64,000 bases of DNA from a bacterium (lineage in GTDB: Bacteria > Patescibacteriota > Minisyncoccia > Moranbacterales > UBA2206). Each line of letters begins with the position of its first letter. The stretch's first letter is position 1. Location: assembly GCA_030654225.1 (NCBI GenBank), contig JAURXY010000026.1:10448-74447 (forward strand), given 5' to 3'. A program made the position numbers and the translations under genes. Under the pieces are notes generated by a model. That model made no database searches, was not told the DNA's origin, and saw only the letters and a program-made list of their open reading frames with translations. Below are positions 15,134 through 38,359 of the stretch, piece by piece.

Positions 15134-15463
15134 ATGGCACAAAAACTATATGTAGGAAATTTATCCTACAATGTGAATGATGAAGCATTGAAAGAAATGT
15201 TTTCCGCAGCGGGAACAGTATCTTCAGCAATGATCATCACCGACAGAATGTCTGGACGATCCAAAGGTTTTGGATTCGTTGAGATGAGTTCTGATGCAGA
15301 AGCAATAGCTGCAATTGACATGTTCAATGGAAAAGAAGTTGAAGGACGAGCATTGACTGTTAACGAAGCTCGACCAAAAGAAGATCGACCTCGAAGCACA
15401 GGTGGCTTTGGAGGCGGAAATGGCCGTGGCCGAGATTTCGGTGGACGAAGAGACCGATTCTAG
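15134..15463 (+). CDS. glycine-rich RNA-binding protein (RRM)
   Basis: RNP-2 LYVGNL, RNP-1 KGFGFVEM, RGG tail. Confidence 0.9.
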   Translation: MAQKLYVGNLSYNVNDEALKEMFSAAGTVSSAMIITDRMSGRSKGFGFVEMSSDAEAIAAIDMFNGKEVEGRALTVNEARPKEDRPRSTGGFGGGNGRGRDFGGRRDRF

Positions 15464-16484: not shown

Positions 16485-16488
16485 AATC

Positions 16489-16575
16489 TTTACTAATTAC
16501 GAATTAAGTACGAATATACTAATAAAAAATTCGTACATTCGTATATTAGTAAATGATTAATAATTCGTAAAGACA
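16489..16575. repeat. TACGAAT/ATTCGTA palindromic intergenic repeat, copy a
   Basis: about 85 percent identical to 48968-49047; imperfect palindrome. Confidence 0.7.
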
Positions 16576-21971: not shown

Positions 21972-22943
21972 ATGAAAAATAAATTAACTTTTATTGAAGA
22001 AGAAAATAAACTAATTCCGAATAGAATAATTGAAGAGCTAGGAATTAAGAATAATCAACAAATATATTTTGAAAAGGAATCAGAATCATTAAAAGTTTTT
22101 GAAATTGTTAATAAATTGCTCGGACCTCGTGGGTTTGAGGAATTTTCCGCCGGCCAGTTTAAAGCAATAGCGGGAGGATCATTAAACTGCTCAAATAAAA
22201 TTAAAAACTATGCAACTGGGAAAGGGGCTATCTCTAAGGGTTTTACTTATATCGCAGACATTATCAAATATTGCCAGATTTGTATTGATAATTCAGTCTT
22301 GATTCCTTTGGAAAGTATAATAGAAGAATTCGAGTGGGCGAAAAAAGCTATAAATGAGGGATATATTACATTACATTCGAATGGGAAGATGAGATATGAT
22401 ATTGAAGCAATTATGGATATAACAAAAGGTTTATTGGTGGAAGTTGCATTTAAAATTGATAGTGAGAGAAAAAATATAGAAATCGAATTGAATAGAGATT
22501 TTTTTACTGGGACAAGTAATACTGATGAGGGTCAAGATATCAAGCGGATAAAATTTACTGGTGATGTTTTTATATCTCCTCGGATAAAAGTACAAATTAA
22601 GGATACTCAATATTTTATACTTATTTCAGAAAATGAATTTAATGGGCCAAGAAAAGCAGAACTTTTTATTTCATATAAAGTACATTGGAAAAAAGCCAAT
22701 ACGGGGCAAAGATTTTTTAGAAGTCTTGGTGGAAGGGGCGAGCATATATTTTCCGATTTTCCAGTTCTTAAGGGAATACGAGCCGAAAGGAGAGGATGGG
22801 CGTTAAGAGAAGATTTTAAGGAATTAAAAAAGTTTAATAAATATAAAGGAAAATCTTTTAATAATGATAATATGTATGTTTATTGGGATGATTTGCGCGA
22901 TTTGAATGATCTTTTTTCAAAATTAAAAAATCTTATTGCTTAA
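21972..22943 (+). CDS. hypothetical protein; candidate restriction endonuclease/effector partner of the LexA-MTase
   Basis: no known motif; 3-prime end overlaps the convergent MTase gene by 11 nt. Confidence 0.45.
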   Translation: MKNKLTFIEEENKLIPNRIIEELGIKNNQQIYFEKESESLKVFEIVNKLLGPRGFEEFSAGQFKAIAGGSLNCSNKIKNYATGKGAISKGFTYIADIIKYCQICIDNSVLIPLESIIEEFEWAKKAINEGYITLHSNGKMRYDIEAIMDITKGLLVEVAFKIDSERKNIEIELNRDFFTGTSNTDEGQDIKRIKFTGDVFISPRIKVQIKDTQYFILISENEFNGPRKAELFISYKVHWKKANTGQRFFRSLGGRGEHIFSDFPVLKGIRAERRGWALREDFKELKKFNKYKGKSFNNDNMYVYWDDLRDLNDLFSKLKNLIA

Positions 22944-24507
22944 TCGCTTTCATAATTTGTTTTGCTACGGCCGTAACCACAGGGACACTCACAGAATTTC
23001 CAGCTTGCTTGTATAGTGAAGAGTCAGCCAAGTTTTTTGGCAGGATAAATGTTTTTGGAAATCCTTGTAGCCTAAAACATTCAAGAGGAGTCAGTTTTCT
23101 GATTCCTTTTTTGTCTTTTATAATTGGAACATTATGTCCACCCGTTCCCATATTAGCAGTGAGAGTTGGACACACGCCTTTTTTGTTTTCCCTCACATAT
23201 TGTCTTCTCCATTGATAAACTTTTCCTCCTTCATTTACAAAATCCTTAAGTTTTTCAAAGAGTGGTTTGTCGTTATAATAATATTTTTTGTCCACATTTT
23301 TTTCCAAAAGGTCAGTGACTCTTAGTTTCAATTCTTGTGGCTCTGGAAATTCAAATTTATCTGAATAATCTTTATTCTTAAATCCGACTATATAAATTCT
23401 TTCTCGGTTTTGTGGAACATTACCATACTCCATAGTGTTTAAAACTTTAGTTTTCACATGATAGCCCAAATCTTCTAGTGTCTGGATGATTATACTAAAA
23501 GTTTTCCCGTTGTCATGACCTTTGAGATTTTTTACATTTTCCAAAAGAAATCCTTCGGGCTTTCTAGCTTCCAAAATTCTTGCAACATCAAAAAACAAAT
23601 TTCCCCGATCTTTTTCATCATTAAATCCTTTGCGATATCCTGCGATTGAAAATGCTTGGCAAGGAAAACCGCCCAAGAGAAAATCAAATTTTGGTAAATC
23701 ATCAATTTCAATTTTTCTCATATCTTCCACGATAAGTTTTGATTTTTTGAAATTCAAATCATAAGTGTTCTTGCAATATTTATCAAAATCATTTGCAAAA
23801 ACTGTTTCAAATCCTGCATTTTCAAAACCTAATCTTATACCTCCAACTCCGGCAAATAAATCTAAGGTTCTAAATAATTTTTGTTTTGAGTCGCTAGGGG
23901 TATTCTCTAAATTTCTTTTTATCTCAATAACCACCCCTCTAATCTCAACTTCTTTCCTATATATCGGCAACATTGTTTGATTGGCTGGTTGAAGTCGGAA
24001 TCTATTTTTCTCTCGGTATATTTTTTTCAAAGTGGCTTCATTGTCATCAATTATCGCGACCACTGTCTGGCCATTTTCTGCCGAAGATTGTTTTTTTATA
24101 ACCACAATGTCACCATCGAAAATTCCTTCATCAATCATGCTCGTACCCCTAACTTCGAGAGCATAATATTGTTCATCTTTTTTTATATTACCCGAAGCAA
24201 TCATCACGCTTTCTCCTATTGTTTCTATGGCTTCGATTGGCTGACCGGCAACTATTACTCCAACTAATGGAATTTTTATAAGGCTATATGGATTTTTCTT
24301 TTTCAATTCGATCCCTCTAGCTGAACTTCCATTTCTTTCGATGAATTCTTTTTTCTCCAATGCTTCTAAGTGTTGGTGAATAGTTGAAGGAGCGGAGAGT
24401 TTGAAATGTTTTCTAATTTCTTCGATAGTAGGGGATAGCCTTTTTTTATTTATATAAGATTTGATAAAATCTAGTATTTGTTTTTGTTTTTTTGTGAGAG
24501 TGGACAT
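22933..24507 (-). CDS. fusion of full LexA-like repressor (wHTH + S24 peptidase) and DNA (cytosine-5)-methyltransferase
   Basis: N-term wHTH; VAG-Q cleavage site; S24 Ser (GTSM) and Lys (ATLKK) 38 aa apart; then MTase motifs I DLFAGVGG, IV GFPCQAFS, VI ENV, VIII QNRERIYIVG, X GNSVSVPV. Confidence 0.85.
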   Translation of the reverse strand: MSTLTKKQKQILDFIKSYINKKRLSPTIEEIRKHFKLSAPSTIHQHLEALEKKEFIERNGSSARGIELKKKNPYSLIKIPLVGVIVAGQPIEAIETIGESVMIASGNIKKDEQYYALEVRGTSMIDEGIFDGDIVVIKKQSSAENGQTVVAIIDDNEATLKKIYREKNRFRLQPANQTMLPIYRKEVEIRGVVIEIKRNLENTPSDSKQKLFRTLDLFAGVGGIRLGFENAGFETVFANDFDKYCKNTYDLNFKKSKLIVEDMRKIEIDDLPKFDFLLGGFPCQAFSIAGYRKGFNDEKDRGNLFFDVARILEARKPEGFLLENVKNLKGHDNGKTFSIIIQTLEDLGYHVKTKVLNTMEYGNVPQNRERIYIVGFKNKDYSDKFEFPEPQELKLRVTDLLEKNVDKKYYYNDKPLFEKLKDFVNEGGKVYQWRRQYVRENKKGVCPTLTANMGTGGHNVPIIKDKKGIRKLTPLECFRLQGFPKTFILPKNLADSSLYKQAGNSVSVPVVTAVAKQIMKAIKQ

Positions 24508-24810
24508 ATAATTGACGCAGGATATTATTTTGTTATAATTCTATTATACCGAAAAAAAACCGAACTAGCAAAAGCGAGTTATCCACAGCACGACCCTTTG
24601 AATATTTTAAGTAAAACTAATTTTTTGTTCAGCGACATGCTAAGTAACACTTTTTTTATTAGAACTGGTTCTTGGAAAGCTTGTCGGGAATAGGGTATAG
24701 AATAAGCAACAGCTATTGACATAATAAACTCAATCAATTAAGATTATTTTACTGGGTAATTTCGAAACCCTAGTCGTTTCGTTTTTTTAATTTAATGATT
24801 TTTATTTTAT

Positions 24811-25230
24811 ATGCCAACGATAAATCAACTCAAGAGAAAACCAAGAAAAACTACCGAGAATAAAAGCAAAACGCCAGCTTTTAAATATGTCTTTAACACT
24901 ATTCAAAACAGACCAACAGATACGGCTGGTCCATTTAAGCGGGGAGTGTGCATCAAGGTTTCCACTACTACTCCAAAAAAACCAAACTCAGCTCTGCGAA
25001 AAATTGCCCGAGTTCGTCTCACAAACGGAATGGAAGTAACGGCCTATATCCCTGGAATCGGACATAACTTGCAAGAGCATTCTATTGTGATGATTCGCGG
25101 AGGTCGCGTTAAGGATCTTCCAGGAGTGCGTTATCATATAGTGAGAGGTGTGCTGGACACTGCCGGAGCAGCTAACCGAAAACAAGGCCGATCAAAATAT
25201 GGAGCAAAAAGAGAAAAAGCTAAAGAATAA
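24811..25230 (+). CDS. rpsL: 30S ribosomal protein S12
   Basis: MPTINQL ... strong family match. Confidence 0.95.
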
Positions 25231-25354
25231 TTGAAAATCTTTACGAATTACTAATCAAATACTAATATACGAATAATATTTATAAGTTGAGAGAATTTTT
25301 TTAGTTTACATTAGTATATTCGTACTTAATTCGTAATTAGTAAAGAATAAGTTT

Positions 25355-25822
25355 ATGGCAAGAAGAAAAAGAATTTATCAAAAAAATACTAAACCTGATC
25401 CAAAGTATAACAACATACTAGTTGGAAAATTTATGGTGAGCATCATGGAAAGCGGAAAGAAAACTATTGCAGAAAAAATAATGTATGATTCTTTTGATAT
25501 CATTCACGAAAGAACAAAAAAGGGTGGTTTGAATATTTTTGAACAAGCTATTAAGAATGTTTCTCCTTTGGTGGAATTGAAATCCCGCCGAGTTGGAGGT
25601 GCTAACTATCAGGTGCCTGTTCCCGTAGCAGGAGACAGAAGAACAACTTTGGCTATTCGTTGGTTAAAAGTAGCTATTAATGCGAAAAAAGGCAAGAAAA
25701 TGGCAGAAAAATTGGCTGATGAACTAATTGATGCTTCCAACAAAATTGGCGGAGCTATGAAAAAACGAGAAGATGTTCATCGAATGGCTGATGCTAATAA
25801 GGCTTTTGCGCACTTCGCTTAA
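25355..25822 (+). CDS. rpsG: 30S ribosomal protein S7
   Basis: family match, 155 aa. Confidence 0.95.
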   Translation: MARRKRIYQKNTKPDPKYNNILVGKFMVSIMESGKKTIAEKIMYDSFDIIHERTKKGGLNIFEQAIKNVSPLVELKSRRVGGANYQVPVPVAGDRRTTLAIRWLKVAINAKKGKKMAEKLADELIDASNKIGGAMKKREDVHRMADANKAFAHFA

Positions 25823-25924
25823 TTTACGAAAGTACGAATCTGGCGAAATTACGAATTCGTATTTTCGTTTAATTCGTATATTCGTAAATTATAAATAAAA
25901 TTAAGAAAGTAAAAATCAAATTAT

Positions 25925-28015
25925 ATGGCTCGAGAATACCCAATCGAAAAATATCGCAATATCGGAATTATCGCTCATATTGATGCTGGAAAAACCACCA
26001 CCACGGAGCGTGTTTTGTTTTATACCGGTATCACTCACAAAATTGGTGAAGTGCATGAAGGCGCTGCAACGATGGACTGGATGGAACAAGAAAAAGAACG
26101 AGGAATTACCATCACTTCAGCCGCGACAACTTGTTTTTGGAAAGATCATCAAATTAATATTATCGATACTCCGGGACATGTGGACTTTACCGTGGAAGTG
26201 GAAAGATCGCTTCGTGTTTTGGACGGTGGTGTGGTAGTTTTTGATGGCAAGGAAGGTGTGGAACCACAATCAGAAACAGTTTGGCGACAAGCAGAAAAAT
26301 ATAAGGTGCCGAGAATTTGTTTTATCAATAAAATTGACAAAGAAGGTGCTGATTTTTATTACGCTCTAAAAACTATTTGGGACAGACTTACTCCAAACGC
26401 GGTAGCTGTGCAACTTCCGATTGGAGAGCGAGGAGATTTTTCTGGCGTGGTGGATTTGATTAAAATGAAAGCTTATACTTTTTCTGGAGAGATGGGAGAA
26501 ATTGTCAATGAAGAAGAAGTTCCAGCTGACATGCTCGAAAAATCCAAAGAGTGGCGAGAAAAAATGGTAGAAAAAATTTCTGAAACTGATGACGCGCTCA
26601 CAGAAAAATTTTTAAACGGTGAAGAAATTTCGCAAGCGGAACTAAAATCGGCTCTTCGCAAAGGAGTCAACGCCGTGACGCTCGTTCCAGTTTTCACAGG
26701 CACTGCTCTTCGAAACAAGGGAGTGCAATTAGTGCTAGATGCGGTAGTGGATTATCTGCCATCCCCAATTGATGTTCCAGCAATCAAAGCAACGGAAGTT
26801 GATGATGAAACTAAAGAAGTAGCCATTAAATATGATGACAGCGCTCCTTTTTCTGCTTTGGCTTTCAAAGTAGCTACTGATCCATTTGTCGGTCAACTAA
26901 CTTTCTTTAGAGTCTATAGCGGAATGCTCAAAGCCGGTTCTTATGTTTTGAATTCTTCTAAAGGAGAAAAAGAAAGAGTGGGCCGAATTCTGCGAATGCA
27001 TGCTAATCATCGAGAAGAAATTGACGAAATTTATACTGGAGGAATCGGAGCGCTTGTTGGAATGAAAAATACTACTACAGGAGACACTTTGTGTGATCCA
27101 GAAAATCCAGTTTTACTGGAAAAAATAACTTTTCCAGAACCAGTTATCTCAATCGCCGTGGAACCAAAAACTAAAGCTGATCAAGAAAAGATGGGAATGG
27201 CTCTTAGAAAATTAGCCGAAGAAGATCCAACTTTCAAAATTAGAACTGATGAAGAAACGGCTCAGACTATTATCTCCGGAATGGGCGAATTACATCTCGA
27301 TATTATCGTGGATCGAATGAAAAGAGAATTCAAAGTTGAAGCTAATATCGGTCAGCCACAAGTAGCTTATCGAGAAACAATTAAATCCAACGCCCAAGCG
27401 GAAGGAAAATATATCAAACAATCAGGTGGACGCGGACAATATGGCCACTGTTGGATCAAAGTGGAACCGCAAGAAGCTGGCAAAGGATTTGAATTCGTGG
27501 ATGAAATCAAGGGTGGCTCTATCCCGCAAGAATATATTGCTCCGATTGGCAAAGGAATCAAAGAGGCGATGGACAACGGAGTTTTGGCGGGGTATCCAAT
27601 GGTGGACATCAAGGCCACTGTATATGACGGATCTTTTCATGATGTTGACTCCTCAGAGGCAGCCTTTAGAATCGCTGGTTCAATGGCTTTCAAAGAAGCT
27701 TCTCGTCGGGCCAACCCAATTATCATGGAACCGATTATGAAAGTAGTGGTGACGACCCCAGAGAATTTTATGGGGGATGTGGTGGGAGATTTGAACTCCA
27801 AGCGAGGTATCATCAAAGAAATGAATGATCGCGGAGAAGGCAATGCGCGAGTAAAAGAAATTGACGCCGAAGCCCCACTTTCTTCAATGTTTGGTTATGC
27901 CACTCAACTTCGCTCAATGACCCAAGGTCGCGCCAACTATGTGATGGAATTTTCCCACTACGCCGAAGTGCCGAAGAATGTGGCGGAAGGAATTATTAGT
28001 GGGGATAAGAAATAA
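25925..28015 (+). CDS. fusA: elongation factor G
   Basis: G-domain [17 protein letters not shown]; 696 aa. Confidence 0.95.
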
Positions 28016-28024
28016 AATATAGGA

Positions 28025-28070
28025 AACAAATTTAAATTCAGTAGAGACGAGGCACTGCCTCGTCTTTTTC
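28025..28070 (+). terminator. fusA terminator / REP-like hairpin (copy 1 of 46-bp direct repeat)
   Basis: GTAGAGACGAGGCACTGCCTCGTCTTTTT; near-identical at 29026-29072. Confidence 0.75.
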
Positions 28071-28133
28071 TTATGGCAATATGTTTTTTAATTTGGCTTG
28101 CAAATTGGGCTAAAATATGATATAATGTAAGAT

Positions 28134-28364
28134 ATGATAAAGTTTCGTCAGGCATTATTTTGGGATACTAATCCAAAGAATATAGATACAGAGAAAAACG
28201 CTCAATATATCATTGAACGCGTTTTGGATTTTGGCAATGATAGAGAGGTAAAATGGCTTTATAATTTCTACGATAAATCGTTGTTAAAAAAAGTTGTCGC
28301 TAAGTCTCGTTCGCTAATGCCAGAAACAAAAAATTTATGGATAATGCTTCTAGAAAGCAAATAG
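28134..28364 (+). CDS. small protein upstream of AbiEii-family toxin (putative antitoxin partner)
   Basis: 76 aa; overlaps toxin start; recalled similarity to partners of DUF1814 toxins. Confidence 0.4.
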   Translation: MIKFRQALFWDTNPKNIDTEKNAQYIIERVLDFGNDREVKWLYNFYDKSLLKKVVAKSRSLMPETKNLWIMLLESK

Positions 28365-29014
28365 AATATAATTTTAGTATTATACCTGCAAAAACAAAAA
28401 AAGCGTTTGTTTTTTTGTCTGGACAAAATTGGCTTAGCGAAAGCGGATGGTATTTGGCTGGTGGAACTGCGCTGGCATTGCAAACAGGGAATCGCAAGTC
28501 AGTGGATTTGGATTTTTTTACCGTAGAAAAAGATTTTGATAAATCAGAATTGCTTGAAAATTTTTCAGAAAATAAAGAATGGAAAACTACCCTAAATAGA
28601 AAAAATACCGTTTATGGCGAACTGTCTAAGGCCAAAATAAGTTTTATCGCTTATCCTTTTTTTGTTCCTAAACAAGAATTTATCCAATATGGTTCGATTA
28701 AAATTTTGCAACCGCGCGATATTGCCGTAATGAAAATTATCGCCATTTCACAACGCGGACGCAAGCGTGATTTTTTTGATCTGTATTGGTGTGCAAAAAA
28801 TGTGGAATCATTAGAAGATTTGATAATAAGATTGAAAGTGCAATATCCTTTTGTGGCACACGATTATCATCATATTTTGAAAAGTTTAGTTTATTTTCAA
28901 GACGCAGAAAATGATCCACTGCCAGATATCACTTTTAAGGCGGATTGGAAAGAAATTAAGGATTATTTTAAAAAAGAAATTTTACGCATTACCAAAAAAA
29001 TAATCTTAAAATAG
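28337..29014 (+). CDS. nucleotidyltransferase AbiEii/AbiGii-family toxin (DUF1814)
   Basis: LAGGTALALQTGNRKSVDLDFF signature. Confidence 0.75.
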   Translation: MDNASRKQIEYNFSIIPAKTKKAFVFLSGQNWLSESGWYLAGGTALALQTGNRKSVDLDFFTVEKDFDKSELLENFSENKEWKTTLNRKNTVYGELSKAKISFIAYPFFVPKQEFIQYGSIKILQPRDIAVMKIIAISQRGRKRDFFDLYWCAKNVESLEDLIIRLKVQYPFVAHDYHHILKSLVYFQDAENDPLPDITFKADWKEIKDYFKKEILRITKKIILK

Positions 29015-29025
29015 AAAAAGCATTA

Positions 29026-29072
29026 AACAAATTTAAATTCCGTAGAGACGAGGCACTGCCTCGTCTTTTTTG
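29026..29072 (+). terminator. REP-like terminator hairpin (copy 2 of direct repeat)
   Basis: same hairpin and flanks as 28025-28070. Confidence 0.7.
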
Positions 29073-29171
29073 TGGCAAGGATTGCTTTTTTGATTGGGAT
29101 GTGCTTGTATGATGATAAGTTATTTTAACAAAAATTTTATCAACGCATAAAATATATATAAGGGGGAAATT

Positions 29172-29477
29172 ATGAAAAAATTCACGGTTAACATGATAAG
29201 AAAAACTCCCGACTTTTCGGAGGTTATAAATTGTTTTTCAAGCCAAGAGCGAAAATATTATTGTCATGAAATAGATAAATTAAGAGTGACATTTTTCGAC
29301 TATGGTTTGATTGAAGTCTTTATCATGAAAGTAAATCCAGCAGGGCCGGATGTAGCTAGAATAAGCTTGATTGGTTATGACGGATATGATGGGCTCCCAA
29401 TTTGGGATGTGAGAGGAGTGTTCAGAATGATTATGAAAGAGGTAATCGAAAAAATTTCGATGCCAAACTTACTATAA
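29172..29477 (+). CDS. hypothetical protein (strong SD)
   Basis: AAGGGGGAAATT-ATG. Confidence 0.4.
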   Translation: MKKFTVNMIRKTPDFSEVINCFSSQERKYYCHEIDKLRVTFFDYGLIEVFIMKVNPAGPDVARISLIGYDGYDGLPIWDVRGVFRMIMKEVIEKISMPNLL

Positions 29478-29493
29478 TTTTAAGGAGGTAGCC

Positions 29494-29691
29494 ATGAAAA
29501 AAAAGGGAATAAATCCAGAAATTGAAGCGGAAGAAAAAGTAACTACTGAAATTAAGCAGTTTCTTGAAGAAAAAGGAATTTTTGAGAAAATCAACCTGCG
29601 TGTAAAAAAACATATCGCACATCTCGGATTGACTGATTTTGAGGAAGACAATTTTATTCGCAAATGCTTCCACGAAGCATTGCATTATTAA
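29494..29691 (+). CDS. hypothetical small protein (strong SD)
   Basis: TAAGGAGGTAGCC-ATG. Confidence 0.4.
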   Translation: MKKKGINPEIEAEEKVTTEIKQFLEEKGIFEKINLRVKKHIAHLGLTDFEEDNFIRKCFHEALHY

Positions 29692-29805
29692 CTGTGTTAC
29701 CAGGCATTCCCCTTCTCTCATTTACGCATTGGCGTGATAGAGAGGCGGGGATTTTTTATTTGTCGCAAAAATTGTGGTAAAATATTTTATATAAAATTGT
29801 AGGCG

Positions 29806-29833
29806 GTAGAGACGCAAAATTTTGCGTCTCTAC
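29806..29833. repeat. 28-bp perfect palindrome GTAGAGACGCAAAATTTTGCGTCTCTAC (REP-like), copy 1, 25 bp upstream of RAYT gene
   Basis: exact copies at 30147-30174 and 54579-54606. Confidence 0.9.
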
Positions 29834-29858
29834 GATGTGATATAATACAAAAATAAAA

Positions 29859-30416
29859 ATGTCAGAATTATTCAAAAACAAATACACAATTAAATCATCC
29901 AGATTATCAAATTATGATTATTCTCAAAATGGAATGTACTTCGTTACGATTTGCACGAAAGACAAGGAATATTTTTTTGGGGAGGTGAAAAATGGGGGAA
30001 TGGTGTTGAATGATGTGGGGAAAATGGCAGATAAATATTGGCGCGAAATTCCAGCGCATTTTCCATTTGTAAGATTAGATGAATTTGTTGTAATGCCCAA
30101 TCATGTGCATGGGATTGTGGAAATTGCAAAAAACATTGATGCTAGCGTAGAGACGCAAAATTTTGCGTCTCTACAGGGCGAAAGGGGAAATAAATTTGGT
30201 CCACAATCAAAAAATTTAGCCTCTATAATTCGTGGTTTTAAGGTGGGGGTAAAAAAATATACAACAAAAAATGAAATTTATTTCCAATGGCAACCCCGTT
30301 ATTACGACCAAATAATTCGAAACGAAATTTCCCTAAACAAAATTCGTGAATATATCCAAATTAATCCGCAGATGTGGGAAAGAGATAAAAACAGTTTAGA
30401 AAATATATTTATGTAA
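29859..30416 (+). CDS. REP-associated tyrosine transposase (RAYT) / IS200-like HuH transposase
   Basis: HuH motif MPNHVHGIV; C-terminal EYIQINP and RYYDQ Tyr region; contains in-frame REP copy 2. Confidence 0.7.
   Translation: MSELFKNKYTIKSSRLSNYDYSQNGMYFVTICTKDKEYFFGEVKNGGMVLNDVGKMADKYWREIPAHFPFVRLDEFVVMPNHVHGIVEIAKNIDASVETQNFASLQGERGNKFGPQSKNLASIIRGFKVGVKKYTTKNEIYFQWQPRYYDQIIRNEISLNKIREYIQINPQMWERDKNSLENIFM
30147..30174. repeat. REP-like 28-bp palindrome copy 2, in-frame inside RAYT ORF (encodes SVETQNFASLQ)
   Basis: exact palindrome. Confidence 0.9.
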
Positions 30417-30478
30417 TTTTCCATTGACATCCAATTTTAAATAAGTTAGCATTAATTTATCAAGTTAAAATAAAATTT

Positions 30479-30757
30479 ATGTTAGACAAAAAACTCAAAG
30501 AAGCGCTTGATCTCTTGGGAGGAAAAGCGGTGATAAAAGACCAAGAACAATATTATGTGATTCTCAGCCTTTTGGAATTTAAGAAAATAAAGAAAGAAGG
30601 CATAGAAGGCTTGACAAAACAAGAATTGGTTGATAAAATCAATAATGATATAGCAAGCTGGAAAGTGATCCAAGAAGAGGAAAAAATTGAAGATATGGAT
30701 CTTAGCGAAATGAGTGAAGCGAAAAGTGAGGAAATACGCTATGAAAAGACGCAGTAG
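30479..30757 (+). CDS. hypothetical protein
   Basis: 92 aa ORF; acidic C-terminus. Confidence 0.35.
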   Translation: MLDKKLKEALDLLGGKAVIKDQEQYYVILSLLEFKKIKKEGIEGLTKQELVDKINNDIASWKVIQEEEKIEDMDLSEMSEAKSEEIRYEKTQ

Positions 30758-30931
30758 GTCTTATCCACAGCAATAAATATACGGGGGACTTGCCAAAATA
30801 ATAAAAGTGTATTAAACTAAATTTTGTAATATATAACTTAATAAAAAATCGCGACTAATTGCGAATCCGGTATTTATTCCGGAATTTTCCGCTCTGGCGG
30901 GGAATGCAAAAATCGCGCCAAAATTAAAACT

Positions 30932-32125
30932 ATGGCAGCAGAAAAATTTGAAAGAACTAAACCTCATGTTAACGTCGGAACTATCGGCCACGTTGATCAT
31001 GGCAAAACCACTTTGACAGCGGCTATTCTTCATGTCTTGGCTTTCAAGGGACAAGCTAAGGAAAAAGGAATTGATGAAATTGACAAAGCTCCAGAAGAGA
31101 AAGAACGAGGGATTACCATCGCTACTGCTCATTGTGAATATGAAACTGAAAAGAGACATTATGCTCATGTTGACTGCCCAGGACATGCTGACTATATCAA
31201 AAATATGATCACAGGTGCAGCTCAAATGGATGGCGCGATTATCGTTGTAGCAGCTACTGATGGTCCTATGCCTCAGACTCGAGAACACATTCTTCTTGCT
31301 AATCAGGTGGGTGTTTCTGAAATAGTAGTATTTTTGAACAAAGTTGATATGGTGGACGATCCAGAATTGGTTGATCTAGTTGAAGCAGAAATCCGAGAAC
31401 TTCTCACTAAGTATGAATTTGATGGAGAAAATGCCAAGGTTATTCGTGGATCAGCTTTGAAAGCCCTTGAATCAAAATCAGCTGACGACGAAGCTGCTAA
31501 ACCAATCTTTGAACTTATGGCCGCATTGGATGAAAAAATTCCTGAGCCAGTGAGAGAAACAGAAAAAGATTTCCTTATGCCAATTGAAGATATTTTCTCC
31601 ATTGAAGGCCGAGGAACAGTAGTGACCGGAAGAATTGAAAGAGGTACAATCAACATCAATACTGAAGTTGAAATTGTGGGAATTCGTCCAACGCAAAAAA
31701 CTATTGTTACAGGAATTGAAATGTTCAACAAATCTCTTGATAGCGGACAAGCGGGAGATAATGCCGGAGTATTGCTTCGTGGAACTAAAAAGGAAGATGT
31801 AGAGCGAGGCCAAGTTTTGGCAAAACCAGGATCAATTACCCCACACACTGAATTTAACGGCGAAGTTTACATTTTGACCAAAGAAGAAGGCGGAAGACAC
31901 ACTCCATTTTTCAAAGGCTACAAACCTCAATTCTATATCCGAACAACTGATGTGACTGGAGAAGTGGTGCTACCGGAAGGAACTGAAATGGTTATGCCGG
32001 GAGACACAGTGAGTTTTGAAGTTAAATTAGGAGCACCCGTAGCTATGGAAGAAGGAATGCGATTTGCTATTCGAGAAGGCGGAAAGACTGTTGGTGCTGG
32101 AGTGGTGACAAAAATTATAAAATAA
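30932..32125 (+). CDS. tuf: elongation factor Tu
   Basis: [21 protein letters not shown]. Confidence 0.95.
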
Positions 32126-32230
32126 AGTATGCGAATAGCGCGCTACGAATGCGCACATGCGAATTGCTCCGAATTTTTTCGTAGATTCGTGTTCATTCGT
32201 AGTTTCGCATCGGATATTATTAAAAACTAA

Positions 32231-32557
32231 ATGTTGAAGGTAGTAGACGAAGTAAAACCAAGAATTAGGATTAAGATTAAGGCGTATGATCATAAGATTA
32301 TTGATCAATCAGCTAAACTTATCGTTGAAACAGCCCAGAGATCAGGCGCAAGTATTGCCGGACCAGTGCCTTTGCCTACCGAAATAAGAAGGTACACTGT
32401 TAACAAATCAACATTTGTTCATAAAGATTCTCGTGATCAATATGAAATGAGAATTCACAAAAGATTAATTGATATAATTAGCCCAACTCCAAAAACGATT
32501 GATAGTCTCACTAATCTAGATTTGCCAGCAGGAGTAGATGTGGAGATAAAAATGTAA
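32231..32557 (+). CDS. rpsJ: 30S ribosomal protein S10
   Basis: family match. Confidence 0.9.
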
Positions 32558-32771
32558 AATATTTCTAGTTAAAGTCTGTACCTGCCAAATTTTCTTACTT
32601 TGTTATATTATTCTCCAACTAAGGATAATGATTATCTGACCCAAACAGTTGAGGATATATAATAAGATAGGAAAATTAGGCAGGCGAGATACTCAACTAG
32701 CCAAGAAAGAAATTTCTATAAACTCGAAAGAGTTTCGGCTGGTAATGACCAGTTTTTATTTTTATAAAAAA

Positions 32772-33332
32772 ATGACAAAGTTTATTCTAGGAAAAAAAAT
32801 AGGAATGACAACGCTTTACAGCGAAGAAGGTGCACAGAATGTGACGCTAGTTGAATGTGGCGCCAAAGTTAGTTTGATTAGAGATGAAAAAAAGAATGGT
32901 TACAATGCTATTCAATTGGAAATAGATAAGACTAAAAATAAAAAGTATAAAAAAGAATTTAGAGTCAATGAAATAAAATTGGAGCAAGATGCTACCTTAG
33001 ATGTTTCTATTTTTGAAATTGGAGAAAAGGTGAAAGTCAGTGGAATTTCCAAGGCTAAAGGTTTCCAAGGTGTAGTTAAGAGGCATGGCTTTGCTGGTGG
33101 ACCAGCAAGTCATGGAGGAAAGCATAATCTTCGCCAACCAGGATCAATTGGTTCTGGATTTCCTGAACATGTTATGAAAGGCAAAAGAATGGCCGGTAGA
33201 ATGGGTGGAAAAAGAACAACTAGTAAAAATTTGAAAATTGTTTTTATTGATAAAGAAAAAAATATTTTAGGACTCGAAGGGGCTGTGCCAGGCGTAGCCG
33301 GTAGAGTTGTTGAAATTGTAAGTGTTAAATAA
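32772..33332 (+). CDS. rplC: 50S ribosomal protein L3
   Basis: start trimmed to MTKFILGKKIGMTT. Confidence 0.85.
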   Translation: MTKFILGKKIGMTTLYSEEGAQNVTLVECGAKVSLIRDEKKNGYNAIQLEIDKTKNKKYKKEFRVNEIKLEQDATLDVSIFEIGEKVKVSGISKAKGFQGVVKRHGFAGGPASHGGKHNLRQPGSIGSGFPEHVMKGKRMAGRMGGKRTTSKNLKIVFIDKEKNILGLEGAVPGVAGRVVEIVSVK

Positions 33333-33337
33333 CTATC

Positions 33338-33964
33338 ATGAAAATTGCTGTTTATAATATAGCCGGAGAAGAAGTTGAAAAAATGGAATTATCCGAAACT
33401 GTTTTTGGAGTGGAAAAAAACAATACCCTCATTCATCAAGCGATGGTAGCAATTCAATCCAATCAAAGACAAGTTCTAGCTCACACAAAAAACAGAGGGG
33501 ACAGAGCTGGCTCCGGGATCAAGCCATGGAAACAAAAAGGAACAGGCCGAGCGCGAGTAGGATCAGTTAGAAATCCTGCTTGGAAAAAAGGTGGAGTGGC
33601 TTTTGGACCAAGAAACGATCGAAATTTTACCAAGAAAATAAATAAGAAGATGAACGCCAAGGCAATTTTAATGGTTTTGAGCGCAAAACTCAAAGATAAG
33701 GAAATTGTTATTTTAGATAAATTTGATTTGAAAGACAAGAAAACTAAATCAATGGCCGATGTTTTGAAAAACCTGAAAATCAGTGCTAAAACTTTGATAT
33801 CTTTCTCAACTTCGGAAAAAGATCTTAGAATTGTTAGTCGAAATCTCAAAAAAACAGAAAATATCCTGACTAGTCAATTGAATGTTTTGGAAATGCTCAA
33901 AAATAAATTTTTGTTAATGTCAAAAGACTCAGTTAAATATTTGGAAGAAAAGTATAATAAATAA
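33338..33964 (+). CDS. rplD: 50S ribosomal protein L4
   Basis: family match. Confidence 0.9.
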   Translation: MKIAVYNIAGEEVEKMELSETVFGVEKNNTLIHQAMVAIQSNQRQVLAHTKNRGDRAGSGIKPWKQKGTGRARVGSVRNPAWKKGGVAFGPRNDRNFTKKINKKMNAKAILMVLSAKLKDKEIVILDKFDLKDKKTKSMADVLKNLKISAKTLISFSTSEKDLRIVSRNLKKTENILTSQLNVLEMLKNKFLLMSKDSVKYLEEKYNK

Positions 33965-33973
33965 TAGAAAAAA

Positions 33974-34288
33974 ATGGTTGAAGATAAAAAAGTAGAAAAT
34001 TCAAATATCGCTTCAAAAATACTTATTGAACCTTGGATAACTGAAGCGGCGACAATGGCTGGAGAACAGAATAAATATATTTTCAAAGTGGCTAAAAAAG
34101 CGACTAAGATTCAAATTAAAAAAGCAATCGAAGAATTATACAAAGTAAAAGTGATAACTGTCAGAACAATCAACATTCCAAGTAAAAAGAGAACAAGGGG
34201 AAGAGTAGTTGGAACAAAATCAGGCTACCGAAAAGCGATAGTGAAAATAAAAAAAGGAGAAAGCATTGATGTATTTGGAGGAAAATAA
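33974..34288 (+). CDS. rplW: 50S ribosomal protein L23
   Basis: family match. Confidence 0.9.
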   Translation: MVEDKKVENSNIASKILIEPWITEAATMAGEQNKYIFKVAKKATKIQIKKAIEELYKVKVITVRTINIPSKKRTRGRVVGTKSGYRKAIVKIKKGESIDVFGGK

Positions 34289-34311
34289 TTTAGAGAGTTA
34301 ACTAAACCAAA

Positions 34312-35145
34312 ATGGCGATTAAAATTTATAAACGAAATACAGCTGGTAGAAGAAACATGTCAATCGTGAAATCTTCTATGATAACCGACCAAAAACCGGA
34401 GAAATCTCTTTTGGCGAAAATGACTAAGAAAGCTGGAAGATCCGGTGGAAAAATTTCTGTTCGTCATCAAGGTGGTGGAGCAAAGCAAAGATATCGAAAG
34501 GTTGATTTTATGCAAGATAAATTTGGTATCTGGGGACGCGTGGCCTCAATTGAAAAAGATCCAGTCAGAAGTGCTTTTATCGCTCTTATAAACTACGTTG
34601 ATGGAGAAAAGAGATATGTTTTGGCTCCAGAAGGTTTGGCAGTTGATCAAAAAATAATCACCCAAGAAGATGCTCCGATAAAATTAGGTAATCGCGCCAA
34701 GGTGAAAAATATTCCTATCGGAACAATTGTTTCCAATTTGGAACTTTTCCCTAGCCGTGGAGGGCAAATTGCAAGAAGCGCTGGCTCAGGGGCAACTCTT
34801 ACCGCCATAGATCAAAAAACTGCTCAAGTAAAAATGTCTTCCGGAGAAATTCGCTTGATAAGTAGTGAATGCTATGCTACTATCGGTCAAGTAAGTAATT
34901 TTGAACATAGTTCTGTTACGATTGGAAAAGCTGGTAGAAAAAGACATATGGGAGTGCGACCAGGAGTGCGAGGCTCAGCTATGAATCCAGTTGATCATCC
35001 ACACGGTGGAGGTGAAGGCCGACAAGGAATTGGACTTAAACATCCAAAAACTCCATGGGGAAAGATAGCTCTTGGTAAGAAAACCAGAAAGAAGAAAAAA
35101 TATAGTAATAAATTCATAATCAAAAGAAGAACTAAGAGAAAATAA
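34312..35145 (+). CDS. rplB: 50S ribosomal protein L2 (basic C-terminal tail)
   Basis: family match. Confidence 0.95.
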   Translation: MAIKIYKRNTAGRRNMSIVKSSMITDQKPEKSLLAKMTKKAGRSGGKISVRHQGGGAKQRYRKVDFMQDKFGIWGRVASIEKDPVRSAFIALINYVDGEKRYVLAPEGLAVDQKIITQEDAPIKLGNRAKVKNIPIGTIVSNLELFPSRGGQIARSAGSGATLTAIDQKTAQVKMSSGEIRLISSECYATIGQVSNFEHSSVTIGKAGRKRHMGVRPGVRGSAMNPVDHPHGGGEGRQGIGLKHPKTPWGKIALGKKTRKKKKYSNKFIIKRRTKRK

Positions 35146-35487
35146 ATGACAAGAAGTCTAAAAAAAGGTCTTTACGTTGACGAAAGACTTATCAAGAAAA
35201 TTAAAGATAAAAAACCGGGGGATCGAACTCCAATTAAGACTTGGTCTCGCGCCTCGGTAATTTCTCCAGAAATGGTTGGTTTCACTTTTGGTGTGCACAA
35301 TGGCAAGGATCATATTCCAGTTTTGGTTTCTGAAGAAATGGTGGGACATAAATTAGGAGAATTTTCTCCAACCAAGAAGTTTGTCCGTCACGGAGGAAAG
35401 ATGCAAAAAGAATTAGAAACAGCCGCTAAACAAAAAGAATTAGATGCTTCAAAAGCAGCTAAAGCCTCAACAGACACCAAGAAATAA
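35146..35487 (+). CDS. rpsS: 30S ribosomal protein S19 (C-terminal K/A-rich extension)
   Basis: family match. Confidence 0.9.
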
Positions 35488-35499
35488 TATTCAACAATT

Positions 35500-36039
35500 A
35501 TGAAAGTTAATGCAAAATTAAACAATTTGAGAATCGCTCCAAGAAAGTCAAAATTAGTGGCTGATTTGATAAAGGGTCTAGATGTTTTGGAAGCACTTGA
35601 TCAACTTGAAGCACATGTCAAAAGAACTAGTCCGCACATGAAAAAATTGCTTCTAAGCGCAATTGCTAATGCGGAAAATAATTTTGGATTAGACAAGAAT
35701 AACCTATATGTATATGAAGCTAGAATCGGAGCAGGACCAACCATGAAACGCTGGATGCCAAAAGCTTTCGGAAGAGCGGGTGAGATTTTGAAAAGAACAT
35801 CAAAAATAGAAATTATCCTAGAAGAGAGAGTAGAAGGAAAGAATAGAAAAACTAAGGAAGAAATGGAAGCGGAAATGAAAAAAAGAGAAAAAGAAAGAAG
35901 GAAGGAAGAAAAAGAACAAAAAGAAACACAGGAAAAATCAGGTAAGGATTCAGATAAAAAAGGTGGAGAAGAACATGCCAAAAAAGAAACTCCTAATAAG
36001 GGTTGGGCAAAAAAAATATTCCAAAGAAAATCAATGTAA
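35500..36039 (+). CDS. rplV: 50S ribosomal protein L22 with about 70-aa K/E-rich C-terminal extension
   Basis: family match over first 110 aa. Confidence 0.9.
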   Translation: MKVNAKLNNLRIAPRKSKLVADLIKGLDVLEALDQLEAHVKRTSPHMKKLLLSAIANAENNFGLDKNNLYVYEARIGAGPTMKRWMPKAFGRAGEILKRTSKIEIILEERVEGKNRKTKEEMEAEMKKREKERRKEEKEQKETQEKSGKDSDKKGGEEHAKKETPNKGWAKKIFQRKSM

Positions 36040-36060
36040 TTTAGTATAAATTAGCAAATT

Positions 36061-36717
36061 ATGGGACATAAAGTAAATCCAATTGGATTCCGCATGGGGA
36101 TAACTCAAGACTGGAAATCTAAATGGTTTAGTAAAAGAGAATATACAAAAAACCTCAAGCAAGATATTGAAATTAGAGGTGGTGTTTCTAAAAAATGGAA
36201 AGCGGCTTTTATCGCTGAAGTAGAAATAGAAAGATCAGCTAAAATGATTCGAGTAATCATAAAAACTGCTAGACCAGGAGTGCTAATAGGACGCGGTGGC
36301 AGTGGCATTGAAGATATCAAAAGCTATATTCAAAAGAATTTTTTCAAAGGTAACAAGAATATGAATTTGAAAGTGGATATTCAGGAAGTTAAGAATATGG
36401 AAGAGAGCGCTGCAATTATGGCGCAAAATATCGCCGATCAACTAGAAAAAAGATTACCTTTCCGAAAAGCTATGAAATCAGCATTGGAACAAGTAATGAA
36501 GAATAAAAATATCAAAGGAGTGAAAATAGAAATGTCTGGAAGATTAGGTGGCGCTGAAATGAGTCGCAGAGAATGGTCAGCCAAAGGAACATTGCCCCTT
36601 CACACTATGCGATGTGATATCGATTTTTCTAGAGCAACGGCCTATACGACATATGGAACACTGGGAGTGAAAGTTTGGTTATATAAAGGTGAAGTTTTTG
36701 AAAAGAGTGTAAATTAA
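36061..36717 (+). CDS. rpsC: 30S ribosomal protein S3
   Basis: KH domain, family match. Confidence 0.95.
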   Translation: MGHKVNPIGFRMGITQDWKSKWFSKREYTKNLKQDIEIRGGVSKKWKAAFIAEVEIERSAKMIRVIIKTARPGVLIGRGGSGIEDIKSYIQKNFFKGNKNMNLKVDIQEVKNMEESAAIMAQNIADQLEKRLPFRKAMKSALEQVMKNKNIKGVKIEMSGRLGGAEMSRREWSAKGTLPLHTMRCDIDFSRATAYTTYGTLGVKVWLYKGEVFEKSVN

Positions 36718-36747
36718 TTATAAAGAAAATAGAATTTTGCAAATATT

Positions 36748-37158
36748 ATGTTGATGCCAAAAAAAGTAAAACACAGAAAGATCCAACGTGGAGGGAAAAT
36801 CCGCGGAACAGCTCATCGCGGTAATGAGATTAGTTTTGGCAGTTTTGGTTTGAAATCTATGGGTGCGAGCTTAGTTACTGCTCGTCAGATAGAAGCCTCC
36901 AGACGCGCAATGACTAGATATGTTCAACGTGGAGGAAAAATTTGGATTAGAATTTTCCCTGACAAGCCAATGACGAAAAAAGGAGATGAAACTCCGATGG
37001 GTAAAGGAAAAGGTGCAGTGGATCATTTTGTAGCAGTGGTGAAACCAGGAACAATGTTATTTGAAATGGATGGCGTGAAGAGAGAAATTGCTAAGGAAGC
37101 GATGCGACTTGCAGCTTATAAATTAAATGTAAAGACTAAATTTGTTGAAAAAGAATAA
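36748..37158 (+). CDS. rplP: 50S ribosomal protein L16
   Basis: family match. Confidence 0.95.
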
Positions 37159-37220
37159 GATGACCGATGCGAAACTACGAATGATATGCGAATCTACGAA
37201 TAATAAGATATGAAAAAATT

Positions 37221-37406
37221 ATGAAGATAAAAGAATTACGAGAAAAAAATACTGAAGAGCTGAAAAAAATGCTTTTGGAAAAACAAGAAAAAGTCCGAAA
37301 GCTTAGATTTGATATTGCTGTAAAGCAAGTGAAAAATACTCGAGAGCTGAGAGGTGAAAAAAAAGATATTGCTCGAATAAATACTTTAATTAATGAAAAA
37401 CAATAA
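37221..37406 (+). CDS. rpmC: 50S ribosomal protein L29
   Basis: family match. Confidence 0.85.
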   Translation: MKIKELREKNTEELKKMLLEKQEKVRKLRFDIAVKQVKNTRELRGEKKDIARINTLINEKQ

Positions 37407-37411
37407 AGAAA

Positions 37412-37660
37412 ATGGAAAATAATTCAAATAGCAATAAAATACTCGCGAAAAAGAAAGGTACGGTAGTTAGTGACAAGGGCAATAAGACCGCTATTATTGC
37501 TGTGGATATATTCAAAACTCATAAAAAATATCAGAAAAGATATAAATCAACCAAAAGATATAAGGCTCATGATGAAGAAAACAAATGTAAAATTGGCGAT
37601 ACAGTAGAGATAGTGGCTTGTCGACCAATGAGTAAGGATAAAAAATATAAAGTAGTTTAG
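37412..37660 (+). CDS. rpsQ: 30S ribosomal protein S17
   Basis: family match. Confidence 0.9.
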   Translation: MENNSNSNKILAKKKGTVVSDKGNKTAIIAVDIFKTHKKYQKRYKSTKRYKAHDEENKCKIGDTVEIVACRPMSKDKKYKVV

Positions 37661-37666
37661 AAATAT

Positions 37667-38032
37667 ATGATACAAGCTCAGACAAAATTAAAGGTAGCTG
37701 ATAACAGTGGAGCAAAAATGATTCAATGCTTCAAGGTTTTAGGTGGATCAAAAAGACGCTTTGCCAGTATTGGTGATATTGTTGTGGCTTCAGTAAAAAC
37801 AGCTGAGCCTCGTGGAATAGTGAAAAAAGGAGATAAGGTACGAGCCGTGATCGTTAGACAAAGAAAAGAATTTAGAAGAAAAGATGGATCATATATTCGA
37901 TTTGATGAAAATGCCGCAGTAATTTTGGAAAACAAAGAACCAAAAGGGACTAGAATTTTTGGACCGATTGCTAGAGAAATCAGAGATAAGGGATTTAGCA
38001 AGATAATTTCTCTCGCGCCAGAAGTTCTATAA
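37667..38032 (+). CDS. rplN: 50S ribosomal protein L14
   Basis: family match. Confidence 0.95.
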
Positions 38033-38053
38033 TTTAAAGTTATAAGAAATATT

Positions 38054-38359
38054 ATGAAGATAAAGAAAAATGATTTAGTGAAAATGCTAGCAGGCAAGGA
38101 CTCCGGAAAAACTGGGAAAGTTTTGCAAGCGGTTCCGCAGGATGGCAAAGTTGTTGTGGAAGGTTTGAATATCATGAAAAAACATTCTAAGCCGAGGAAA
38201 CAGGGAGAAAAAGGACAACGAATTGAAGTGCCGAGAAAAGTTCAGATTTCTAATGTAATGTTGATTTGTCCAAAATGCGCAAAACCTACTAGAGTGGGAT
38301 ACAAACTATTAGATGGAAAGAAACAAAGAATTTGTAAAAAATGCCAAGGAGAAATATAA
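38054..38359 (+). CDS. rplX: 50S ribosomal protein L24 (C-terminal zinc-ribbon-like CxxC ... CxxC)
   Basis: KOW motif + Cys pairs. Confidence 0.9.
   Translation: MKIKKNDLVKMLAGKDSGKTGKVLQAVPQDGKVVVEGLNIMKKHSKPRKQGEKGQRIEVPRKVQISNVMLICPKCAKPTRVGYKLLDGKKQRICKKCQGEI

Follow-up and report, generated by a model that had tools for sequence, protein, structure and literature searches.

The intergenic spacers considered here belong to a 64,000-nucleotide stretch of DNA (contig JAURXY010000026.1, positions 10,448 to 74,447; hereafter the window) from a low-GC (36%) member of Candidatus Moranbacteria, within the Patescibacteria or Candidate Phyla Radiation (CPR). According to our analysis, the repeats of TACGAA/TTCGTA words in these spacers, six of them in the str/S10/spc cluster of ribosomal-protein (r-protein) genes, are probably gene-less members of a mobile family, similar to transposable elements of the miniature inverted-repeat type (MITEs), whose full-length forms carry a gene for a GxxExxY protein; we put the probability of this reading at roughly 0.68. 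The spacer elements are insertions that are polymorphic among close relatives, their arm architecture is common to several genera, and a nuclease gene is bracketed by such arms.

An earlier sequence-only reading had named eight spacers of this kind, and all eight are present and match its description. The window contains 43 TACGAA/TTCGTA words, against 27.4 +/- 5.2 in shuffled sequences, and 30 of the 43 fall inside the eight spacers, which make up 751 nt or 1.2% of the window, so that the words are 194-fold denser there (Poisson p ~1e-57). The words TACTAA/TTAGTA and TGCGAA/TTCGCA are enriched there 42-fold and 18-fold, respectively. The earlier proposal of a "REP-type" (repetitive extragenic palindrome) repeat family is borne out in the broad sense that the elements are inverted repeats, dispersed and inserted; their tie to a cassette with a nuclease gene had been missed.

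Polymorphic insertions and their gene-carrying relatives

Every junction of the str/S10/spc cluster was aligned among the window and the closest relatives compared, the metagenome-assembled genomes UBA2206 (L001) and MFD12002 bin49 (L002). The r-proteins of these relatives are 93-100% identical to those of the window, and the operon DNA is identical at ~89-91%. Two junctions are filled in the window only: rplP-rpmC (62 nt, versus 1 nt in both L001 and L002) and rplF-rplR (77 nt, versus 21 and 16 nt). Two others are filled only in L001, namely rplC-rplD (60 nt, versus 5 nt in the window and 8 nt in L002) and rpsQ-rplN (109 nt, versus 6 nt in both others), and four only in L002: rpsS-rplV (115 nt, versus 12 nt in both others), rplV-rpsC (192 versus 21 nt in both), rpsE-rplO (116 nt, versus 19 nt in the window and 20 nt in L001) and rpsJ-rplC. 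At rplR-rpsE the window has 73 nt, L001 has 15 nt and L002 has 99 nt built from other words. Where spacers are empty, they are identical or nearly so between the three genomes.

The remaining junctions differ in the kind of filling. The rpsL-rpsG spacer is filled in all three genomes by different subfamilies, L001 and L002 having a complete element of TGCGAAT words. At rpsG-fusA the window and L002 share the same element and L004 has a similar one, L001 has an element of CATGAAA words, L006 has an empty spacer of 32 nt and L007 an insert of 489 nt; in both L007 and L460 a GxxExxY gene lies between the arms at this junction. The tuf-rpsJ spacer of L001 and L002 contains a plain hairpin and lacks the window-type element. 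Seven copies of the window's tuf-rpsJ subfamily were found in L007 (42% GC), which belongs to a more distant genus; they share a single orientation, occupy all but one of the eight junctions between rplB and rplX, and each extends from just past the stop codon to the ATG.

The ends of the family are inverted arrays of ~36-45 nt made of 7-nt words (TAC[G/T]AA[T/A], TGCGAAT). From outside to inside, the arm consists of CT[T/C], two words, 3-4 nt, a word, 1 nt and a last word, where the word is TAC[G/T]AAT and the start-to-start spacings are 7, 10-11 and 8 nt. This architecture is kept in the window, L002, L006 and L007, is weaker (3 mismatches) in L008 and L015, and recurs in at least 120 metagenome contigs with a median GC of 0.39; these are probably patescibacterial and, to go by their record names, may come from samples of groundwater and sediment. 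A relaxed search returned 64 left-right arm pairs, 56 with loops of -2 to 115 nt and one with a loop of 162 nt, while five enclose interiors of 369-482 nt and two enclose 1049 and 2324 nt. A set of 62 inverted pairs, most with loops of -2 to 115 nt, marks the arms as terminal inverted repeats in the loci analysed.

Full-length members of ~470-550 bp contain one GxxExxY gene of 120-145 aa between like arms and lie co-directionally inside operons. The 489-nt insert of L007 is an arm pair around a 133-aa open reading frame (ORF) that matches PF13366 (PDDEXK_3, 4.5e-25) and TIGR04256 ("GxxExxY protein"). Among loci selected by their arms, eight further GxxExxY genes were found, six of them bracketed within tens of nucleotides (those of L386 and L388 were not). 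As an independent test, a protein database was queried with the L007 protein, and eight homologues (33-71% identity) were chosen blind to their flanks, by the length of their contigs and so as to spread the identities. All eight proved to be bracketed by inverted arrays, with inverted-repeat scores of 14.5-34.5, whereas 14 of 15 neighbouring control genes scored 6-10 and one scored 17. Five of these homologues are of the Patescibacteria type (48-71% identity to the L007 protein), are flanked by TACGAAT/TACGAAA/TACTAAT words and lie between the hydrogenase small and large subunits, RtcB and Tmk, TraC and TraG, T2SSE and T2SSF, and rpsG and fusA. The three distant homologues (33-38% identity; one from Verrucomicrobiota, 62% GC) are flanked by CACGGAA/CACAGAC words.

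The same arrangement extends to isolates of other phyla: three of four GxxExxY genes on finished plasmids are bracketed, with CACAGAG/CACGGA words, in the form of CACAGAGGA arrays in Bacteroides finegoldii, CACAGAGA arrays in Bernardetia and an 11-nt inverted repeat in Treponema; the Fusobacteria plasmid has a direct repeat instead of inverted arrays. On one contig each, L394, L406 and L411 contain gene-carrying and gene-less elements with identical subfamily-specific termini. Moreover, the short element at 5626-5766 of L394 comprises one arm and the first ~50 nt (17 codons) of the neighbouring cassette's ORF, and because it retains the ORF start, it can be recognised as an internal-deletion derivative. 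A profile search for GxxExxY loci in viral contigs found none. About 1.3 kb upstream of the GxxExxY cassette of L455, in a conjugation-like cluster, there is a gene for 23S_rRNA_IVP, a four-helix bundle (1-192), which we take to be another small gene known from hairpin-bounded inserts.

The cargo protein of the full-length forms combines the profile match, the GxxExxY motif, the D...ExK residues and the PD-(D/E)XK fold. Its residues E38, D77, E87 and K89 are invariant in 50 GxxExxY sequences, and the structural model is confident (predicted local distance difference test, pLDDT, 89.7). With these predicted catalytic residues and fold, the protein looks like an active nuclease. The family is large: a threshold of E<=1e-3 gives 28,914 representatives, and one of E<=1e-10 gives 11,020 (50%-identity clusters). 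Many of the best-scoring representatives are tandem two-domain fusions of ~260-270 aa, which suggests that the single-domain proteins act as dimers. The function of GxxExxY proteins is listed as unknown (PMC3424549). Our literature search found no paper on their genomic context and none containing a TACGAA-type word array; PADLOC and PHROGs gave nothing meaningful for the nuclease. A sequence search against solved structures returned weak Csn2 matches (E ~0.002, 40 residues), which we regard as spurious.

Conservation within the arms concerns the words rather than the helix. Positions 1-3 and 5-7 of the words are 94-100% identical between the two arms of an element, whereas the word centre matches in just 58% of pairs; a rough estimate from the counts is that G and T at the centre appear to vary independently on the two arms. 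The internal 3-4-nt spacer is complementary less often than in shuffled sequences, though not significantly. The inverted repeat goes on for 3 nt outside the outer word, and these positions are complementary in 90%, 57% and 48% of cases (z 7, 4 and 3), with no signal beyond -4. Since it is the words and the exact ends that are conserved, and not continuous pairing, this pattern fits protein-recognised ends better than an RNA helix under selection. At the 3' outer end, 69% of arms carry GTAG, giving a CTAC...GTAG polarity. Elements of either orientation are found in the window, and solo arms are not biased towards the sense strand (12 sense vs 20 antisense); an apparent bias, seen in a few phage contigs and three copies of the window and L001, failed to hold up.

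As for placement, 18 of 153 metagenome elements (12%) adjoin a str/S10/spc gene and 88% lie elsewhere. By our own rough estimate, this cluster holds ~3-4% of a genome's gene junctions, and on that assumed share it is favoured about threefold. In the window, elements fill 6 of ~31 junctions in the r-protein cluster vs 2 of ~55 elsewhere, a modest enrichment (Fisher p 0.023); of the two outside copies, one precedes a hypothetical gene and the other lies between tpiA and fba. Among elements with both neighbours resolved, 70 of 82 sit between co-directional genes, with a median gap of ~5 nt after the stop codon and ~8 nt before the start codon. Sites of GxxExxY cassettes or elements include genes for hydrogenase, RtcB-Tmk, type IV secretion, the type II secretion system and glycolysis. 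No terminator-like or strong (>=10 of 12) promoter-like sites coincide with the window elements, and the clear intrinsic terminator after fusA (28043-28067) lies outside all of them.

These data suggest a mechanism in which a GxxExxY nuclease would recognise the words and mobilise both the gene-carrying and the gene-less forms. The constant position of the gene between the arms, the coarse pattern of different words in Patescibacteria-type and distant homologues and the intact catalytic residues all point to this step, which we would nevertheless rate at somewhat less than an even chance. Short elements would arise through internal deletion and arm loss. They would be tolerated in operon-internal spacers because they bring no terminator- or promoter-like site and fit snugly between the stop and the next start codon. 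In a broader and equally tentative proposal, GxxExxY (PF13366) proteins may be the mobilising or homing nucleases of an unrecognised cross-phylum class of tiny selfish cassettes, although we lean slightly against it. Such a cassette would have one PD-(D/E)XK gene of ~130 aa between inverted, lineage-specific word arrays, with TACGAAT in Patescibacteria and CACGGA/CACAGAG in Verrucomicrobiota, Bacteroidota and Spirochaetota. It would enter operon-internal spacers without duplicating its target and give rise to MITE-like hairpins like those of the window's r-protein operon.

Several points weigh against a mobile family with nuclease-carrying full-length forms. GxxExxY genes are absent from the 64-kb window and from the 20-kb loci of L001-L006, and a trans-acting copy in the window's genome has to be assumed. 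There is one convincing deletion derivative (that of L394), and most loops show no gene remnant; a possible one in the window loop at 25275-25309 is too weak to claim. A search of 61 pairs, with boundaries set at 0-5 and lengths at 2-8, gave no direct-repeat signal of a target-site duplication, so these are not classical DDE-type MITEs, and to our knowledge no transposition chemistry is known for the GxxExxY family. Filled junctions often replace the entire ancestral spacer, sometimes with a different stop codon, which simple cut-and-paste insertion does not predict. The co-varying outer 3 nt indicate that some selection on pairing or on exact ends exists. Finally, the arms and the gene could be linked otherwise, e.g., by homing of the gene into hairpin loops. 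Homing with co-conversion was considered for the 90-nt coding flanks of filled vs empty junctions, and no consistent drop in identity was seen; only rpsE-rplO in L002 drops, to 0.83.

The copies in the window

An arm of ~36 nt is common to three window copies, and the remaining copies are variants of that arm. They comprise three complete elements bounded by CTTTAC...GTAAAG, two zero-loop palindromes, one asymmetric element, one solo arm and one arm with a truncated partner; no strand is assigned to the complete elements and the zero-loop palindromes.

The first complete gene-less element of the CTTTAC subfamily (16485-16575) lies between two + strand hypothetical genes, has arms at 16488-16523 and 16537-16572 with a 13-nt loop, and folds as RNA at -23.5 kcal/mol (z -5.5). 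The second fills the tpiA-fba spacer (48961-49048; arms 48964-48999 and 49013-49048; z -5.2), and its flanking genes match TIM and F_bP_aldolase. That these copies outside the cluster are related, as had been noticed earlier, is confirmed by 91% identity over 88 nt between 16485-16572 and 48961-49048. The third, in the rpsL-rpsG spacer (25235-25350; arms 25239-25274 and 25310-25345, loop 35 nt), belongs to the same family but is inverted, being 95% complementary to the arm at 16487; its fold has z -2.1 on the + strand and -4.9 on the - strand.

The zero-loop palindromes of rpsG-fusA (25820-25893; -32.1 kcal/mol, z -7.8) and rplF-rplR (40113-40187; z -2.3 on the + strand and -4.0 on the - strand) are both centred on TACGAATTCGTA. 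Their common body had been called near-identical, and the two do share 82% identity over 78 nt. The asymmetric copy of tuf-rpsJ (32126-32215, + strand; z just -1.9) aligns with the seven L007 copies; its left arm consists of GC-rich mini-stems around a TACGAA word and its right arm of four TTCGTA-type words. The solo arm of rplP-rpmC (37165-37205, + strand) reads TGCGAAA-C-TACGAAT-GATA-TGCGAAT-C-TACGAAT, i.e., direct words without a partner arm and without a fold (-0.3 kcal/mol, z +1.45). The rplR-rpsE copy (40545-40600, + strand; z -2.1) is an arm of the TGCGAAT subfamily with a truncated two-word partner (ATTTGTA-A-ATTAGCA), and the similarity noted between it and the rplP-rpmC copy amounts to 89% over 36 nt. 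The description of the spacers as long palindromes thus suits several copies but not the single arm of rplP-rpmC, and tuf-rpsJ and rplR-rpsE fold only marginally.

Small GC-rich palindromes (CCTGCCTACCGGCAGGCAGG, or the 44-nt CCCGCCTCG...CGAGGCGGG) are nested in TACGAA words at TAC^G in L002 (10325-10516) and L007 (12409-12518 and 16772-16877). The TACGAA word is apparently itself targeted by a further tiny element.

Competing explanations

Selection by the host for RNA hairpins, serving as RNase III processing sites, as 3'-end stabilisers or as structures that keep the following ribosome-binding site masked until translation of the ORF upstream, is an unlikely explanation of the spacers, even though much in their form is consistent with it. 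Five copies fold far better than shuffled sequences on one strand or both (z -4 to -8), the elements are placed snugly (~5 nt after the stop to ~8 nt before the start), the outer 3 nt are complementary (90%, 57% and 48%), and the start-side outer nucleotides are often G-rich (GTAGGG, GTAGAG) and could pair away a Shine-Dalgarno-like motif. Correia elements and REPs, moreover, affect mRNA processing and stability. However, orthologous junctions of near-identical operons are polymorphic for presence and absence, and the family includes a structureless solo arm and weakly folding copies. Nothing points to compensatory change at the word centre (58% match), and the internal spacer is non-complementary. 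Both orientations occur in the window, with solo arms unbiased (12 vs 20). Rfam offers no match either: in a scan of the window with Rfam 15, only a tRNA reaches its gathering score, and at E<=1 the sole match within 24500-41200 is a plant miRNA model with 28 bits vs a 211-bit threshold. Since the words are conserved without conserved pairing, a solo arm exists and both orientations are used, an effect at the RNA level would be at most a side effect, secondary to mobility.

It is quite improbable that the elements are REPINs (REP doublets forming hairpins) mobilised by the Y1 (HUH) transposase encoded in the window at 29859-30416, which resembles the REP-associated tyrosine transposases (RAYTs). 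This gene has the HVH and RYYD motifs; it scores 23.0 bits with PF01797 (equal to the cut-off) and 57 bits with NF047646 (REP-associated tyrosine transposase), which is under the NCBIfam cut-off of 80. Several traits of the elements agree with such an enzyme: the lack of target duplication is as expected of Y1 transposases, ...GTAG terminates 69% of arms, the paired inverted arms recall the layout of a REPIN (PMC3337134), and all eight copies of the L007/tuf-rpsJ subfamily have one orientation. On the other hand, the arms bracket GxxExxY genes and not RAYT genes, they are AT-rich word arrays and not a GC-rich stem of 20-40 nt, and their CTAC...GTAG polarity is opposite to that of REPINs. Many elements are present in L002, which nevertheless has no such RAYT-like gene at the locus. 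The window's RAYT-like gene goes with another palindrome, GTAGAGACGCAAAATTTTGCGTCTCTAC (29806, 30147 and 54579), and has no TACGAA arm nearby.

The palindrome GTAGAGACGCAAAATTTTGCGTCTCTAC is a perfect 28-nt sequence of the GTAG...CTAC form just upstream of the RAYT-like gene (29806-29833). It recurs in frame inside the transposase's own ORF (30147-30174; ...VETQNFASLQ...) and in frame inside hypE (54579-54606; ...SRDAKFCVST...). In-frame palindrome insertions into coding genes recall the Rickettsia palindromic elements.

A regulator of translation-machinery genes, one of the options of the sequence-only reading, would need operator arrays for a DNA- or RNA-binding protein, comparable to ribbon-helix-helix heptads or to the translational regulator proposed to bind TAACTGA repeats; we consider this very improbable. 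The strictly conserved 7-nt words in direct and inverted arrays, the ~3-fold enrichment near str/S10/spc (12% vs the assumed ~3-4% of junctions), the location of six of the eight window copies in the cluster and the precedent of TAACTGA repeats in r-protein operons (PMC4679880) would agree with it. A conceivable binder of single-stranded word repeats is also encoded in the window: a 109-aa RRM_1 protein (15134-15463; Pfam RRM_1, E = 5.8e-22). Against this, orthologous junctions do not keep the elements, differing word subfamilies swap at one junction, and 88% of the 153 members lie outside str/S10/spc. In close, congeneric relatives the orthologous spacers lack the repeats or are differently filled, an outcome that had been specified beforehand as contradicting regulation, and this polymorphism counts against a dedicated regulatory role.

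No more credible is the local birth of immobile, gene-unrelated heptamer microsatellites by slippage, for although arbitrary heptamer arrays are common (triple arrays in viral contigs: TAGCAAT >=120, TATCGAA 73 and TACGAAT >=120) and the empty rplF-rplR spacer holds a word-like TTAGTA seed, the fixed four-word plan with defined spacings and termini across genera, the near-identical copies in different spacers (82-91% in the window; eight copies of the L007 subfamily) and the nuclease-cassette link with its deletion derivative all speak against it. Control heptamers being common in viral contigs as well, these counts give TACGAAT no clear special place across the biosphere; all that was seen is a weak excess of exact period-7 arrays. 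High-GC (55-65%) phage-like contigs of IMG/VR contain (AATTACG)x3-4 arrays, singly or as inverted pairs (L072, L095 with 8 sites, L062/L082); those of L072 (1831, 5828-5895, 9610-9676) are in spacers between co-directional genes. The examined stretches of these contigs contain no GxxExxY gene, and control heptamers are common there too.

If the spacers are indeed filled by a nuclease-linked mobile family, the most conserved operon of a ~1-Mb genome would be colonised by selfish DNA, with the junctions hit differing per species, and the tempting interpretation of the repeats as regulators of r-protein operons would be removed for a reduced CPR genome. Annotators could recognise such spacers, and the variable spacing in r-protein clusters, which serve as phylogenetic markers in CPR binning, would be explained. 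A large protein family of unknown function would gain a testable DNA partner in the word arrays flanking its gene. If the cassette does owe its mobility to the nuclease, it would be a compact mobile element with a PD-(D/E)XK enzyme and multi-word ends.

Other repeats of the window and comparison with known systems

The window contains further insertions and repeats. Between fusA and tuf lies a cassette with an AbiEii toxin gene (type IV toxin-antitoxin system; genes 28134-29014) that neither L001 nor L002 has. Direct repeats of 64 nt (28006-28069 and 29007-29070; 86% identical) lie on either side, each with the fusA terminator hairpin, and to judge from the sequence the cassette looks like an insertion that duplicated the terminator region. 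An ORF of 523 aa on the - strand (22933-24507) has the unusual architecture of a LexA DNA-binding domain fused to an S24 peptidase and a C-5 cytosine DNA methyltransferase. The motif TGTTAAGTAACAC, often after TTTTTGTTCAGTAAC, has 8 copies vs 1.1 expected, all in spacers upstream of genes (sites 1727, 2361, 2952, 3515, 21741, 24605 and 24638), the one before the LexA-methylase fusion among them; the motif could be an operator or a promoter element.

A second inverted-repeat family, with ends of the TGTCAT(T/C)C...GGATGACA type around GC-rich stems (e.g., TGTCATTCCCGCGAAGGCGGGAATCTAG), occupies other spacers (44337-44470, 45443-45521, 54341-54436 and 60530-60665), and a related copy lies at rpsE-rplO in L007. 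A third spacer element of ~130-200 nt is bounded by CCCCGCAC...GTGCGGGG and has a conserved CGCCTACGGCTTA core. It is found in the window (46315-46512), where it has no Rfam match, in L001 (18915-19126), in L002 (16030-16240) and in several spacers of L003-L005, and it recurs in r-protein spacers of relatives (rplO-secY, rpsJ-rplC and rplC-rplD).

The TACGAA family is closest in kind to bacterial MITEs, REPINs and intergenic heptamer repeats, and differs from each in a defining feature. Like the MITEs Correia (Correia repeat enclosed element, CREE) of Neisseria and Nezha of cyanobacteria, its members are short (60-170 bp), non-coding and bounded by terminal inverted repeats; they have many dispersed copies that are polymorphic between relatives and co-transcribed within operons, there are longer, gene-carrying partners whose ends are the same, and at least one internal-deletion derivative exists. 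Unlike MITEs, they lack a target-site duplication, their ends are arrays of four 7-nt words instead of a unique terminal inverted repeat, the partner gene encodes a ~130-aa PD-(D/E)XK nuclease and not a DDE transposase, and the insertions often replace the whole spacer.

With the REP/REPIN-RAYT systems (PMC3337134, PMC3733652) the family shares an extragenic location, palindromic form, absence of target duplication, a two-arm inverted doublet, frequent GTAG at arm ends and a RAYT-like gene in the window. It differs in that the window's RAYT-like gene has its own unrelated palindrome while TACGAA arms flank GxxExxY genes, and in having AT-rich word arrays and a reversed tag polarity (in REPs, GTAG or CGTC is at the 5' end).

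The cyanobacterial short tandemly repeated repetitive (STRR) sequences are intergenic heptamer repeats. TAACTGA heptamer repeats of Beggiatoaceae, Cyanobacteria and Bacteroidetes also occur, unexplained, in r-protein operons (PMC4679880), and both kinds resemble the TACGAA family in having 7-nt words in spacers and a patchy cross-phylum distribution with absence from close relatives. Those repeats, however, are contiguous, direct, mostly forward and just upstream of start codons, whereas TACGAA words are non-contiguous with fixed spacing, form inverted arms in both orientations and are tied to a gene cassette.

Parallels among selfish genes are the intervening sequences of 23S rRNA with a small ORF and the free-standing homing-endonuclease genes of phage operons. 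Here, too, a small selfish gene is placed within a transcription unit, with inverted repeats or conserved genes on either side, and one junction, rpsG-fusA, has been hit repeatedly (L007, L460 and the window hairpin); in contrast, nothing here points to RNase III excision or to homing, and the coding sequence flanking TACGAA junctions bears no consistent co-conversion signal. The small dispersed repeats (SDRs) of Elhai et al. are reportedly very small nested repeats of cyanobacteria. They resemble the small GC-rich palindromes nested at the fixed TAC^G position in L002 and L007, and the likeness concerns a second element type that targets the TACGAA word and not the TACGAA elements themselves.

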